Source: Myxococcota bacterium (lineage in GTDB: Bacteria; Myxococcota_A; UBA9160; UBA4427). From it: DNA of 64,000 bases. The translations under genes and the position numbers were made by a program. How positions within the stretch are numbered: the first letter of the stretch is position 1; every line of letters begins with the position of its first letter. This document shows positions 37,229 through 51,216 of the stretch, in pieces. A model generated the notes under the pieces. The model was not told the origin of the DNA. It worked only from the letters and a program-made list of their open reading frames with translations, and did no database searches. The stretch covers positions 3,136,001 to 3,200,000 of the forward strand of contig OZ252299.1 in the NCBI GenBank assembly GCA_965250285.1. Direction: 5' to 3'.

Positions 37229-38500
37229 TCAGCCCGAAGACGCGCCCAGAGAGCTCAGCACGTTGGCCCGCGCACCGAGCGTGTGCGAGATGCCCGAGAG
37301 CAGGGAGAAGACCCGGCCGACGAGCACGAAGTCGCTCGGGACCGTGACGATCGGGTTCTCTCGAATCTCGTCGAAGAGCCCGCCCGTCATCTCCTCGGTC
37401 AGCTCTCCGTCGAACTGATTCGCTTCGCTGCGGCGCATCATGCGGCGCGCCAACGTGGCGAAGCTGTCGGTCTCGCCCGACTTCGTCTCGAAGCCGAGCT
37501 CGGTGAACGCCCGCACCATCGCCGATTCGTTGAGCGTCATCAGCGAGAAGAGCAGCTCGAACATGCCGAGGCCGAAGCCCTCGGGCAGCTCTTTCGAGAG
37601 CCCGAAGTCGATGAGCACGATGTCGCGGTTCGGCCGCACGAAGAGATTGCCCGGGTGCGGATCGGCGTGGAAGAACCCCGCCGCAAAGACCATCTGGACG
37701 AAGATCGCCATCAGGTCGGCCATCACTTCGGTGGGCTCGAGGCCTGCGCTCTTCATCGCGTCGACGTCGGTCACCTTGATGCCGTCGACGAACTCCATGA
37801 CCAGCACGCGCTCGGTCGAGATCTCGCGGTGGATCTCGGGGACGACCACACCGCCCTCGCGCCGAAAGATCTCGCGCACCCGGTCGGCGCAGTCGGCTTC
37901 GCGCCGAAAGTCGAGCTCGAGCGCGAGGTGCTTGGTGACCTCTTCGAGCAGCGGCAACAGCTCGATCGGCTGCGGGTCGAAGTACTCGTAGACCCGACAG
38001 GCGCGGCGCACGTTCGCGAGGTCGGTGTAGACGACCTTCTCGATGTCGGGATACTGCACCTTGACCGCGACGCGCTGGCCGTCGTGCAGTCGCGCTTCGT
38101 GCACCTGCGCAAGCGACGCCGACGCAATCGGGATGGGGGCGAACTCGGCGAACACGGCGTCGAGCGGCTGACCGAGCTCGCGTTCGACCGCGCTGCGGAT
38201 GACATCGAACGACACCGTCGGCACCGCGTCGTGACACTGCTTGAGGATCTCGATGTACGGCGGAGGAAAGATGTCCGACCGCGTCGCGATCACCTGACTC
38301 ACCTTGATGATCACGCCGCGCAGCGAGAGCGTGCACGCGAGGATCTCGCGCGCCGCGCGTTCGTGCGTCTTCGTCAGGTCGTCGGGCGGACCGAGCCGCA
38401 GCAGCCTGCGTCCCCACTCGGGCACCTTGTAGGTGAGATAGATGTAGAGACCGCTGTACGCGATGCGCAGGCTGCGCAGGAACCGGATCAGCGCGTTCAC
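37229..38500 (-). CDS. ABC1/AarF/UbiB atypical kinase
   Basis: IKVSQ, ASASLAQVH, VAVKVQYP, ELDFRRE, HADPHPGN, IDFG. Confidence 0.93.
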   Translation of the reverse strand: MNALIRFLRSLRIAYSGLYIYLTYKVPEWGRRLLRLGPPDDLTKTHERAAREILACTLSLRGVIIKVSQVIATRSDIFPPPYIEILKQCHDAVPTVSFDVIRSAVERELGQPLDAVFAEFAPIPIASASLAQVHEARLHDGQRVAVKVQYPDIEKVVYTDLANVRRACRVYEYFDPQPIELLPLLEEVTKHLALELDFRREADCADRVREIFRREGGVVVPEIHREISTERVLVMEFVDGIKVTDVDAMKSAGLEPTEVMADLMAIFVQMVFAAGFFHADPHPGNLFVRPNRDIVLIDFGLSKELPEGFGLGMFELLFSLMTLNESAMVRAFTELGFETKSGETDSFATLARRMMRRSEANQFDGELTEEMTGGLFDEIRENPIVTVPSDFVLVGRVFSLLSGISHTLGARANVLSSLGASSG

Positions 38501-39594
38501 CGGGCTGCTTCCGCCTCCAGATCGAGCTCGAAGCCCGTGCGCTCCGGCGGCTGCCAGGGGCGCGCGAGGCCCTCGAATTCCTGTCGGATCGAGTCGGCCG
38601 AGGCGTGGCCGATGAGCGCGTCATCGAGCGCATCACGGGTCTCACCCTGCTGCTCCTCGGGCCGGCTGCGTGTCATCTGGTCGAGGATGCCGTGCAGGTA
38701 GCCGTGCACGAGCCAGCGACCCGGCAGGGTCTCACCCTCGGTCGTTCGCACGGTGCGCGCCGCGAGCTCGCTGAGCGCGGTGCGCAGATACTCGACGTGC
38801 GGCGCCTCGTCGGTCTGGATGTAACCGACCATGGCCGCCGCCTCCTTCGGCGCGGCCGAGACCTGCTCGTTGCCGAGCACCGTCTTGCCCCACTCGAAGA
38901 TCCGCTTCGCGAATACCTCGATCACGTAGACCTGCGCCATGGTCGCCACCATGCGCTCGAGCTTTTCGTCGACCATCGGAAACCGGCGCTCGCGCGCGCC
39001 GCCCCGCCCGCGTCGCCCCATGATGCGCATCAGCACGTCGCCCGGGATCTTCGGGTTGTCGAAGGCGAGATCGCGGGCCGCCTCCCACATCTGCTTGTGG
39101 CCGCCCTCGTTCTTGTGACCAGCCTCGTCGCGCGCATGCGCCTCGAAGAGCCCCTGATCGAGGTGCGCCAACGCCGTGCCGTCGACCGATTCGACGATGT
39201 TCTCGCCGAGATCGGGCACGCGCACGTCGCGGATGATCGCGCCGAAACCCTCGACGATCGAGATCACCGTCACGGTGCGCACGATGGGCTCGACGACGCC
39301 CTCACGCAGGAGCAGGATCGCCTGGTCTTCGTTCGGATACTGCGGCGGAAGCAGCGCCTCGTCGATCTCGACCAGCGCGTGACCGTCGGCCGCGAGCCGC
39401 GCCTGCCACGCGTCGATCGCCGGCTGGCGGTGGAGTGTGCGCGGTGAGAAGTACTGCCCCGCCTCATCGAAACCGCCGTGGCAGCGCACGCCGTTGGCGA
39501 AGAGCGGCTCGAGTCGGTCGCCGCTCGCAAGCAGCTCCTGGGGTGTGAAAACGCGGTTCGACGGATCGACCGTCGCGGACAGGCTCTCGGACAT
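38497..39594 (-). CDS. Ferritin-like diiron protein of unknown function
   Basis: IVEG...RDEAGH...IEV...DEAPH, two E...ExxH sets. Confidence 0.6.
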   Translation of the reverse strand: MSESLSATVDPSNRVFTPQELLASGDRLEPLFANGVRCHGGFDEAGQYFSPRTLHRQPAIDAWQARLAADGHALVEIDEALLPPQYPNEDQAILLLREGVVEPIVRTVTVISIVEGFGAIIRDVRVPDLGENIVESVDGTALAHLDQGLFEAHARDEAGHKNEGGHKQMWEAARDLAFDNPKIPGDVLMRIMGRRGRGGARERRFPMVDEKLERMVATMAQVYVIEVFAKRIFEWGKTVLGNEQVSAAPKEAAAMVGYIQTDEAPHVEYLRTALSELAARTVRTTEGETLPGRWLVHGYLHGILDQMTRSRPEEQQGETRDALDDALIGHASADSIRQEFEGLARPWQPPERTGFELDLEAEAAR

Positions 39595-47327: not shown

Positions 47328-49100
47328 CTAGGGGGCCCCGGTCTCCGGCGTGATCGAGCCGTCAGCGCCGGGTGTCGCGCCGGCGCCGCCACTCGCGTCC
47401 GCCGTGCCGTATACGATCTCGCCGGCCACGATCGCGATCGCGCCCGCGTCGCCGCCCTGCGATCCGATGACGCCCGGGTTGGCGTTGCCGCCCGAGCTGT
47501 CCATCGCCGGCTCAACATCGACCGAGCCCGTCGCCACGCCCGCCTCGGCGGCGAGGTCGAACGACAGCCCTACGCTGTCGCCACCGGCGCTCTCACCGTC
47601 GCCGCCCCTGGCAGTCAGGCCGTCGAAGCCGAGGAGGTGGATCGCCTGGGTGCCCTCGCTGATGTCGTTCAGTAGGTAGAAGAAGACGCCGCCTCCCGCG
47701 CCGCCCGTGCCATCGCTGGCCAGAGATTCGCCGCCCGTCGCGATCACCCCGCCCGAGACCCAGATGTCGCCCGCCGGAACGTCGAGCTCGCGCTCTTCGT
47801 AGTCGTCGACGCTCGACCCGGTGAAGAAGATTGCGGAGCCACCAACACCGTAGTAGTCGGCTCCGATCTCGCTCGACGCATCTCCGCCGTGAGCGATGAG
47901 CATGCCGCTCGATCGCAGGTCCGCACCCGCCGCCCCGAGGCCTATCTCGCCCCCACTGCCCGGATACACGAACTGGGCGGCGTCATCGGTGGCGTCGCCG
48001 CCATCACTCGTGAGGTCGCCCGTGTTGCGCAGCTCGCCGCGGTAGTAGCCCGCAACCTGGATGGTGCCGCCGTCGCCGCCCTGGCCAACACCATCGCCGC
48101 CGCTCGCCTGCAGATCGCCCGAGTTGCAGAGCGAGGCGTACGGCAGAATCGCGATCCCGCCGCCACTGCCACCGATCCCCGTGGCGCCCGATGCAGCACC
48201 ACCGCTGCTTCGCATGTCGCCCGTATTCTCGATCAGGCCACCGGGCTCACCGTCGAAGTCCACTTGATAGTTGTAGAAGCCGGTGTAGAAATAGATGCCG
48301 CCGCCGTTGCCGGCTCGACCATCGGTCTGATCGGCGCCATACGAGAGCCACGCGCCGCTGTTGTAGCCACGGCCGAGCGCACCGACGTCGATCGGGCCGC
48401 CATCCTGCCCGGGCAACGTGCCGAACGTCTCGATGCCGCCCCTGCCGATGTAATCGCCATCGGTATAGAGATTGACGGCCCCGCGCTGCTCGCTGTCGAC
48501 GTCGACGACCGTGATCGTGCCGTCGTTGACCAGGTCGTGGCTGAAGGTCAGAACGCCGGCCGGCCGACCATTGCTCGATAGATTCAGGCCCAGCGTGACG
48601 GTGGCACCCGCCTGCACCTCGAAGCCAGTCACGGGCGCCTCGTTGCCGAGGATCAGATCACCGTCCGAGACGTACAGGCTCGAGTCGTCTTCGAGCAGGT
48701 ACGGAACACCGAGGGGAGGCGCCGAGAGCACGACCGGAATCGCGAGATCGCCGCTCACGACGAGTGGATTGGGGCCGAGATCGGGCGAGAACGAACCCGT
48801 GGGCACGAAGCTCGCGTCAACCGAACCGCTCTCGCTCACCTCGATCGAGCCCGCACCCCCGAACCAGATCTCGAAGCCGATGAAGCCCCCCAGGCCGCCC
48901 GTGCCACCGGTCGAGCCGGCGTCGCCCCCCGAGACATCGATCGGGTGCGTCGATGCACTCGCGCCTCCGACGCCCGGATTGCAGAGCACCACCGTCGTCG
49001 TCGTGCTCGTGCGGGTCTGCTTGCAGCCCAGGTGGCCCGCACCGAGCAGGCACACGAGCACGAGCGCGCTGATCCGCACGGCCGGAATCGAGCGATGCAT
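47328..49100 (-). CDS. Gly-rich repetitive surface lipoprotein (beta-helix/adhesin-like)
   Basis: HLGC lipobox; repeated NxGxLxAxGG...GGxGGxI units. Confidence 0.7.
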   Translation of the reverse strand: MHRSIPAVRISALVLVCLLGAGHLGCKQTRTSTTTTVVLCNPGVGGASASTHPIDVSGGDAGSTGGTGGLGGFIGFEIWFGGAGSIEVSESGSVDASFVPTGSFSPDLGPNPLVVSGDLAIPVVLSAPPLGVPYLLEDDSSLYVSDGDLILGNEAPVTGFEVQAGATVTLGLNLSSNGRPAGVLTFSHDLVNDGTITVVDVDSEQRGAVNLYTDGDYIGRGGIETFGTLPGQDGGPIDVGALGRGYNSGAWLSYGADQTDGRAGNGGGIYFYTGFYNYQVDFDGEPGGLIENTGDMRSSGGAASGATGIGGSGGGIAILPYASLCNSGDLQASGGDGVGQGGDGGTIQVAGYYRGELRNTGDLTSDGGDATDDAAQFVYPGSGGEIGLGAAGADLRSSGMLIAHGGDASSEIGADYYGVGGSAIFFTGSSVDDYEERELDVPAGDIWVSGGVIATGGESLASDGTGGAGGGVFFYLLNDISEGTQAIHLLGFDGLTARGGDGESAGGDSVGLSFDLAAEAGVATGSVDVEPAMDSSGGNANPGVIGSQGGDAGAIAIVAGEIVYGTADASGGAGATPGADGSITPETGAP

Positions 49101-49624: not shown

Positions 49625-50770
49625 CTACTTCTTCGAGTGCACGATCGCGCCGGCCTTCGAGCGGCTGGCGTCGTCCTGCGGCGGGGCGAAGAACCGCTCC
49701 GGGGCCTGCGACGCGTCCCCCCGTTGAATCTGCGTGTTCCGGGCGCCGCCAAAGTCGTTCAGCCCGAGCTGTTCCCGAAAATCCACCGATGCATGGAGTG
49801 ACGTGTCATCCAGGGGAATCCCGCTCAGGTCGGCCGTGCGGACCAGGCCGTTGAAGATCCCCACGATGCCCGACGCCTCGGCCACACCGGCGTCACCCAG
49901 CTCGGCCCGCACGCGCGCGCGGGCCGGGTCCATGTCGTCGCTACCGCGGGTAATGGCCTCGGCAAAGCGCAGCAGGGCCGCACCGTGCGCGACGCCCCCA
50001 TCGCCCTCGCCATCGACCGTGGCGCGCAGTTCGATGTCGACGCCTTCGTTTTCGCCGCTCTCACGGAGCAGGCCGACGTGGGAGGTCGTTCAGTAGAAGC
50101 ACTCGTTCACCGCAGAAACCCGCGCCGCGACGAGCTCGGCCTGGGCGCGCGTGAGCGGGCCGGCCCAGTCGAGGTCGTAGAACCCCCCGCTCTCCCCCGC
50201 GCTGTACATCGCCATGACGTTCTGCATGAAGAGCCGATTGGCACTCGGAACGAGCGACAGTGCACGTCCGACGTTCGGCCCCTGCCACGGCACCATCATC
50301 GGAATGTACGCGCCGGCCTCGCCCGCCTCTGCGAGGCGCTCACCCGTGGGCTCGCCGGGCTCGGGGGTGGGCAGCGGTTCGTGCCCGCGTCCGAGCGCTT
50401 CGCCGAAGGCATCGATCGCCGAGACGGTCGCGACCACCGAGCCGAGCTCGACGTACGGCGCATCACCGAGCGATTCGATCACCTGCTCGGCCCAGGCCCG
50501 GTCGATCTTGTGCGCGTCGGCCGCAATGGTGCGAGCGGCCTCGATGGCGGCGTCGCTGAGCGGCACCTCGGGGTCGGGCAGCGCGCCCCGTGCCCAGGGC
50601 GGGTCGGTGCGCGCCGCACGGGCGGCCCGAGCCTGCCGGGCGATCTCGACGCGCTCGGCCCCCGTCCAGTAGGCCCCCGCCGAGCCGATCTGCTGCCAGC
50701 TGGCACGGTGCAGATCGGCGATCAGATCTCTCACATCGAAGTGATCGCCTGCATAGTCGAATGAGCTCAT
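49625..50770 (-). CDS. AhpD/CMD-like alkylhydroperoxidase-related selenoprotein (381 aa, Sec at UGA 50090-50092)
   Basis: ORFs 50090-50770 and 49625-49933 are in frame; read-through gives ELVAARVSAVNECFY-U-TTSHVGLLR, i.e. AhpD CxxCxxxH with U as the second Cys. Confidence 0.85.
50055..50071 (-). promoter_or_regulatory. Candidate bacterial SECIS hairpin
   Basis: CUGCUC-CGUGA-GAGCGG, loop starting 25 nt after UGA with G at loop position 2. Confidence 0.6.
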
Positions 50771-50877
50771 GCTGCGCCTCCGCTGCGCTTCGCTCGAAGT
50801 GAACGCTCGTCCGGTCGCAGAGGGTAGCGCCAGCCGCGGCTACCCGAGGCCAGCTGGTGCGAACGGGCCTGCGGAGC

Positions 50878-51000
50878 TCGAGCACCAGACCAGATTCGAA
50901 CGGTCGTCCCCTGCCCACATCCGTCCGCCGCCGCACGCTGTGTCGGCGCGCTCATCCGATCTGCTCGCTCATCGCTCGCAGATCGCCCTCACGTTGGCAT
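50878..51000 (-). mobile_element. Degenerate tRNA-Gly 3'-half fragment with insert (att-like copy A)
   Basis: Collinear with copy B at a 216-bp offset; GTTCGAATC T-loop. Confidence 0.6.
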
Positions 51001-51048
51001 GCCTTAAGCGCACGGGCCTCTAGCCCAAAACCGGCTTCGAGCTCTGGA

Positions 51049-51093
51049 TACAAAAACGGCCCGCCCCACTACGTGGGACGAGCCGATTTTGTA
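51049..51093. terminator. Long bidirectional rho-independent terminator directly after the tRNA-like CCA
   Basis: TACAAAAACGGCCCGCCCCAC-TAC-GTGGGACGAGCCGATTTTGTA. Confidence 0.75.
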
Positions 51094-51216
51094 TGGAGCA
51101 CGAGACCAGATTCGAACTGGCATCCCCTTCGCACACCAGACATGCCGTTCCGGCATGTCCGGCGCGCTCATACGATCTGCTCCCTCATCGGTCGCAGATC
51201 GCCCTCAAGTTGGCAA
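51094..51216 (-). mobile_element. tRNA-Gly(GCC)-like 3'-half fragment with ~78-nt insert (att-like copy B, probable island end)
   Basis: Minus strand: TTGCCAA anticodon loop ... GCCAG-TTCGAAT-CTGGT T-arm, CTCGTGC-T-CCA; no 5' half upstream. Confidence 0.7.

Follow-up and report, generated by a model that had tools for sequence, protein, structure and literature searches.

A 381-codon frame on the minus strand of the window (the whole 64,000-nucleotide stretch of DNA analyzed here) contains an internal TGA, and the two frames around it are almost certainly one gene. Judged by its profile score and motif, this gene is a further member of a curated selenoprotein family, NF041238, known since 2005. 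Decoding of the UGA as selenocysteine (Sec) is predicted with near certainty, and the best overall explanation, which we hold to be very probable, is a single NF041238 gene with UGA read as Sec, encoding an AhpD-type selenol/thiol oxidoreductase of 381 residues. The features of the locus are collected in Table 1.

Table 1. Features of the NF041238 locus in window coordinates; signed positions are counted from the UGA.
Feature	Coordinates	Strand	Basis
Full gene, 381 codons + TAG (ATG at 50770, TAG at 49627-49625), alkylhydroperoxidase-related selenoprotein (NF041238)	49625..50770	-	NF041238 score; both halves coding in one frame
Shine-Dalgarno-like GGAGG, 6 nt 5' of ATG	50777..50781	-	sequence inspection
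In-frame TGA (50092-50090), codon 227, predicted selenocysteine	50090..50092	-	TGA in 104/104 distinct homologs
Bacterial SECIS-type hairpin: 6-bp stem +19..+24 with +30..+35 (strands 50071-50066 and 50060-50055), loop CGUGA +25..+29 (50065-50061)	50055..50071	-	conservation, RNAalifold
N-terminal lobe, ~residues 1-130, predicted degenerate AhpD/CMD-type helical unit without Cys	50381..50770	-	model pLDDT 94.9
C-terminal lobe, predicted catalytic, ~residues 150-330, 2PRR/6K40-type AhpD-like fold, split by TGA	49781..50323	-	structure match, phmmer
AhpD relay residues E212, C224, Y226, U227, H231	50078..50137	-	invariant in 29/29 aligned proteins

Gene structure and family assignment

The original prediction placed the TGA at the second Cys position of an AhpD-type motif and counted about 154 open codons behind it; on translation of the minus strand these statements and the coordinates proved exact, and a plus-strand reading of the locus, which has two stops, was dropped. 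The portion before the TGA comprises 226 residues with the C-terminus NECFY, the 154 open codons past it start with TTSH, and the TGA itself occupies the second Cys position of the motif C224-F-Y-U227-T-T-S-H231. Both peptides quoted earlier, ALLRFAEAI and GIVGIFNGLVRTAD, are present in the translation. The two halves are coding in the same frame according to a genome-trained codon model (0.22 and 0.26 per codon, with at most 0.015 in the other five frames). A sigma-70 promoter scan returned 0 sites.

Gene calling with translation table 11 splits the locus into a 226-aa ORF and a 102-aa ORF, the latter starting from an ATG 53 codons past the TGA. No in-frame ATG, GTG, or TTG is found between the TGA and codon 280 of the window gene (52 codons), so that H231 would be missing if the second half were a gene of its own. 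The open frame downstream of the TGA, on which the original prediction had leaned, is a weak argument by itself and was set aside as stand-alone evidence: across the whole genome (68.6% GC), at least 100 codons remain open after 8355 of the 25379 TGA codons that close frames of at least 100 codons. What lifts the observation above chance is the homology across the TGA, together with the conservation of the codon and of the hairpin in 104 distinct genes.

The read-through product matches the NCBIfam equivalog NF041238 (AhpD_rel_CFYUT) with 304.8 bits against a cut-off of 175, the match spanning residues 13-340 and profile positions 1-355 of 357. The halves alone score 174.3 and 105.3 bits, and the cut-off is passed only upon read-through. 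The same holds for the Pfam CMD family PF02627 (31.4 bits, cut-off 23) and for the AhpD core TIGR00778 (30.9 bits, cut-off 27.8), while the scores are below the cut-offs for AhpD proper, TIGR00777 (13.5 versus 191.95 bits), and for TIGR01926 (38.8 versus 81.8 bits). A 2026 review, in the passages covered, equates NF041238 with a selenoprotein family reported in 2005 as "hypothetical protein 1" and gives its motif as CxxU. The corresponding passages of the 2005 study (PMC1088965) base that family on four sequences, for which a SECIS is predicted, and give no functional evidence. The window gene resembles the family in its above-cut-off score, the CxxU motif of CFYUT (here C224-F-Y-TGA-T), a single predicted Sec, the bSECIS-type hairpin, and similar length.

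The genome has three loci above the NF041238 cut-off, each containing a single TGA: the window gene (about 296 bits in the within-genome comparison) and two paralogs (386 and 459 bits). In a quick tree of 101 rows, for which 3 of the 104 genes were left out for short flanks, the window protein falls in a subclade of 42 rows (SH-aLRT 99) that lacks an N-terminal CxxC. That CxxC is present in 55/101 rows, including both paralogs of the genome; the window protein has a lower family score than these two paralogs. Two NF041238 paralogs, one per subclade, face each other across a short-chain dehydrogenase gene in another genome (G021, L055:5089-8216). Finally, weaker CMD-type matches containing one TGA each were observed at G035:C1:3328058-3328603, G035:C1:1293477-1293887, G028:C49:33366-33728, G018:C72:101058-101555, and in G009:C222; these could possibly be other AhpD-like selenoproteins.

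Conservation of the TGA and of the downstream hairpin

Alignment of homologs was expected to show Cys or UGA at codon 227 within continuous homology. Column 227 is TGA in 31 of the 33 aligned loci, the exceptions being one locus that is unaligned over the column and a distant, weakly matching paralog, which has GAG there. It is also TGA in all 80 of the best 80 of 475 genome matches, whose titles name Myxococcota, Deltaproteobacteria, Gamma- and Alphaproteobacteria, Acidimicrobiia, Dehalococcoidia, Binatia, and others. Pooling both sets and dropping 7 duplicates leaves 104 distinct homologous genes; every one of them has TGA at the column, never TAA, TAG, or a frameshift. In a sample of 201 genomes of the phylum, exactly one TGA was found in 33/33 places among the matches listed, in 24 genomes. 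One homolog (L069) has a stop 20 codons past an intact TGA and hairpin, with homology reaching residue 346, and this early stop is probably a frameshift or an assembly error.

The homology runs across the TGA to solved structures as well. In phmmer alignments, which cross the TGA, the column is Cys in 2OYO, 6K40, 2PFX, 3C1L, and 2PRR, with E 2.5e-8 for the catalytic lobe against 2OYO. No full-length member with Cys at position 227 was found among 1458 candidates of a region search or among the 120 profile matches listed, so the putative equivalence of the column to Cys is drawn only from distant, single-lobe solved relatives.

The hairpin loop opens at +25, in agreement with the 25 nt after the UGA given in the original prediction. 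RNAalifold applied to 31 sequences yielded a single helix, that of Table 1, closed by a loop CG(U/G)GN, and predicted no conserved lower stem. In these sequences 186/186 cells are paired, compared with 25-59% in slid-register controls, and 0/500 shuffles match the observed pairing or covariation score, a comparison in which the shuffles take no account of relatedness and the structure comes from the same sequences. All six pairs are retained in 96 of the 104 distinct genes. The pair +19:+35 is C-G in 82 genes, A-U in 10, G-C in 2, U-G in 3, and unpaired in 7. The pair +24:+30 is C-G in 96 genes and U-A in 8, by synonymous changes on both sides; the eight changes are probably one event (seven are in the tree, mostly in one clade). 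The Arg codon within the loop is CGT in 78 and CGG in 26 of the 104 genes and CGC in none, whereas the comparison column, a conserved Arg ten codons 5' of the TGA, is CGC in 30/104. Because of this codon bias and the synonymous compensatory changes, the constraint on the putative SECIS hairpin is one that acts at the RNA level. Of the 25379 TGA codons considered in the genome, 50 have a hairpin in the same register behind them, and three, those of the family paralogs, have the strict motif in register.

The published bSECIS model has a loop of 3-9 nt with a G among its first two positions, a stem of 4-16 bp, a spacing of 16-37 nt, and a folding energy of -7.5 kcal/mol or lower. The geometry of the window hairpin is within this model and like the consensus summarized in Fig. 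2A of PMC13188914: a 5-nt loop with G at position 2 followed by U, a 6-bp stem, and 24 nt from the UGA to the loop. It differs from the consensus in having no predicted conserved lower stem and in a conserved 17-nt register slightly weaker than -7.5 kcal/mol (-6.7). The energy is borderline and varies with the segment taken, with -7.4 for 19 nt, -10.1 for 22 nt, in a slipped lower register, and -13.8 kcal/mol for 43 nt. In the region of the UGA, segments of 43-101 nt are no more stable than their shuffles (z from -1.24 to +0.32), and the isolated 17-nt hairpin has z -2.66 as a segment picked after the fact. The energy of the single sequence was accordingly set aside as evidence, and the earlier folding argument is weak when taken alone.

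Could the TGA be a true stop, separating two genes or splitting a pseudogene? Public gene calls do end there: 120/120 public protein matches listed end in ECFY (one being the window gene's own fragment) and 119/120 matches listed in a profile search end in xCFY, which makes 239/240 homologs with the same truncation among the matches listed; the 226-aa product, used as a query of the ESM Atlas, retrieved unnamed clusters truncated to that length. Many homologs also have an ATG 6-7 codons 3' of the TGA. The public calls, however, are automatic, and a true stop does not fit with the invariance of the triplet in 104 genes from several phyla, the position of the break inside one helix-turn-helix active site, the lack of an early start codon in the window gene, or the conservation of the hairpin at synonymous sites. 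We therefore regard a true stop as very unlikely. The 120th profile match (P0122) is a single ORF of 402 aa with SFYG for CFYU, 32% identical and aligned over residues 1-346, and this homolog shows both halves joined in one chain without a TGA. It has lost both redox residues, retains the N-terminal CxxC, and is a possible non-catalytic member.

The original prediction pointed to selA, selB, selC, and selD as genes to be looked for, and all four are present, each above its own cut-off (selA 492 bits, selB 317, selD 281, and tRNA-Sec 62.6). The tRNA-Sec was found by ARAGORN too and is the only TCA-anticodon tRNA listed in the genome. SelD of this genome (L010, C1 5312234-5313154, minus strand) has Cys rather than Sec in its N-terminal motif CGGCAAK. 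Among 41 related genomes, 29 have NF041238 above the cut-off, and selA is matched in every one of these (above the cut-off in 28, as two partial pieces in the remaining one); the two relatives without selA have no family match. This co-occurrence is consistent with the family using Sec and discriminates little, selA being present in 39/41 relatives. It is extremely unlikely that the TGA is instead translated as Trp, Cys, or some other residue, be it by a code change across the whole genome or by leaky read-through. TGA closes 2326 of 3323 long coding-like frames and is thus the ordinary main stop of the genome, which excludes a genome-wide code change; the sole TCA-anticodon tRNA, the Cys at this column in solved homologs, and the bSECIS-type hairpin behind the TGA also argue against such recoding.

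Predicted structure and possible chemistry

The AlphaFold2 model of the read-through chain is one unit (pLDDT 92.2, pTM 0.91), in which the protein is predicted to consist of two AhpD-type lobes, the N-terminal one without catalytic residues; residues 1-223 contain no Cys. The N-terminal 140 residues were also modelled alone and compared with 48161 chains. The top 8 rows are all CMD/AhpD-family chains or Sestrin2, with Z from 9.4 to 5.0, values that are modest for a helical domain in a ranking that is uniform for this model. Foldseek on its own found no match to either model at E <= 0.001. The catalytic lobe matches 2OYO, 6K40, and 2PRR with Z 15.9-16.1 and rmsd 2.5-2.9 over 162-166 residues. 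In the alignment its relay residues correspond to Glu74, Cys86, Tyr88, Cys89, and His93 of 2PRR (numbering as in the passages of PMC4674687), and they match the five-residue relay described in PMC3141380. Both the fold of this lobe and the Glu/Cys/Tyr/Cys/His relay are shared with the AhpD-like peroxidase-related proteins (TIGR01926; 2PRR, 6K40, 2OYO, 2PFX, 3C1L) and with Mycobacterium tuberculosis AhpD, from which the window protein differs in having Sec where they have their second Cys and in carrying the extra degenerate N-terminal lobe.

The best structural match of the whole chain is human Sestrin2 (Z 16.9-17.4, rmsd 3.4, 241 residues, 8% identity), tied within about 1.5 Z with the single-lobe matches. 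The two share, in the predicted model, a single chain made of two AhpD-type lobes of which only one is catalytic, but the order of lobes is reversed in the window protein, where the catalytic lobe is C-terminal and has CxxU instead of a single Cys. Of the Sestrin features, neither the catalytic Cys of the N-terminal lobe nor the DDYDY-type hinge of the C-terminal lobe is present, the sequence having no DDYDY. Sestrin2 is treated as a fused 2PRR-type dimer in the passages of PMC4674687, and in the model the N-terminal lobe of the window protein likely stands in for the partner subunit of a 2PRR-type homodimer. Since fused dimers of AhpD-like proteins in which one lobe is differentiated have already been described in bacteria (PMC11429811), Sestrin ancestry was set aside as a novel claim; independent fusion would be a simpler reading of the likeness than shared ancestry. 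A literature search by title found no title linking NF041238 to a Sestrin-like two-lobe layout.

Thiol/selenol oxidoreductase activity is highly probable given the fold and the conservation of the catalytic residues, and an organic hydroperoxide is slightly favored as the main substrate. The original prediction spoke of one 381-aa Sec peroxidase/reductase split by gene callers. Its first part, one split Sec gene, is supported by the 104/104 TGA codons, the Sec machinery, the homology to Cys-containing structures that runs across the TGA, and the bSECIS-like geometry of the hairpin; the peroxidase or reductase function is suggested by the fold and the catalytic residues. In M. tuberculosis AhpD, the attacking residue is reportedly the one at the second motif position. 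By the established pathway, the hairpin 19-35 nt past the UGA likely recruits SelB with its Sec-tRNA, so that the UGA is decoded as Sec. The Sec227 selenolate would then attack an organic hydroperoxide, or the disulfide of an oxidized partner, Cys224 would resolve the intermediate to a selenenylsulfide, and E212, Y226, and H231 could relay protons. A lipoyl carrier or a small thiol may re-reduce the enzyme, by analogy with the AhpD system (PMC8945050).

The same selenoprotein could alternatively be a reductive dehalogenase of halogenated aromatics that attacks with Sec, which we consider unlikely. Bmp8 is known to act as a debrominase of the CMD family, and Sec is the attacking residue of the animal deiodinases. 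Bmp8 (6OHI/6OHJ) aligns with the catalytic lobe at Z 15.1-15.3, close to the 15.8-16.1 of the peroxidase-like proteins, it is the best, though weak, sequence match of the N-lobe profile (E 0.064), and the presence of three paralogs in one genome suggests differing substrates. By sequence, however, the catalytic lobe matches the peroxidase-related proteins 2OYO, 6K40, 2PFX, 3C1L, and 2PRR, with Bmp8 absent among the matches listed (11 and 12 sequences); its identity to Bmp8 is 13-14%, compared with 22-26% for the peroxidase-related proteins, and no halogenase-type neighbor occurs among the genes scanned. A broader and similarly improbable proposal is that NF041238 is a near-obligate selenoenzyme with a substrate of its own and not a generic antioxidant: Sestrin-shaped, with a SECIS near-invariant across many phyla, a dead N-terminal lobe binding a ligand or partner, and a Sec lobe dehalogenating halogenated aromatics. 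The AhpD-type selenol/thiol oxidoreductase is the reading we prefer.

Genomic context and implications

The flanking genes differ among the 7 loci compared, where 52 of the 107 called ORFs were scanned, and share no Pfam family except the common enoyl-CoA hydratase, SDR, and GST, in shifting positions; at these loci the neighborhood names no partner or substrate. Directly downstream of the window gene on the same strand, positions 47331-49100 encode a Gly-rich protein of 590 aa whose N-terminus is lipoprotein-like, and a well-coding ORF of 365 aa is located at 38500-39594, also on the minus strand; neither matches a Pfam family at 1e-5. Two copies of the tRNA-Gly(GCC) 3' end (50878-50907 and 51094-51123, with 5 and 2 mismatches in 30) are found a short way upstream of the NF041238 gene. 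They lie in repeats of 240-270 bp that are 91-93% identical to repeats behind a tRNA-Gly gene ~22 kb away (window 50878-51215 and genome C1 3208433-3209967). The DNA between the repeats has a lower GC content (0.61-0.67 versus 0.67-0.71) and contains two UbiD genes, a UbiX-type flavoprotein, a piece of a phenolic acid decarboxylase, and two MalT-like regulators, with no integrase family among the ORFs scanned. This region is probably an aromatic-acid decarboxylation island at tRNA-Gly.

The passages covered of the 2026 review and of PMC1088965 contain no measured activity for the NF041238 family. A substrate for the family would be new, the window copy offering no special handle on it. If the dehalogenase reading were true, such an NF041238 protein would be a bacterial CMD-fold counterpart of the deiodinases. 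The short and strongly conserved hairpin is a handy natural minimal bSECIS for reporter tests. Finally, the public collection carries the product of this gene as a 226-aa fragment, and this annotation needs correcting.
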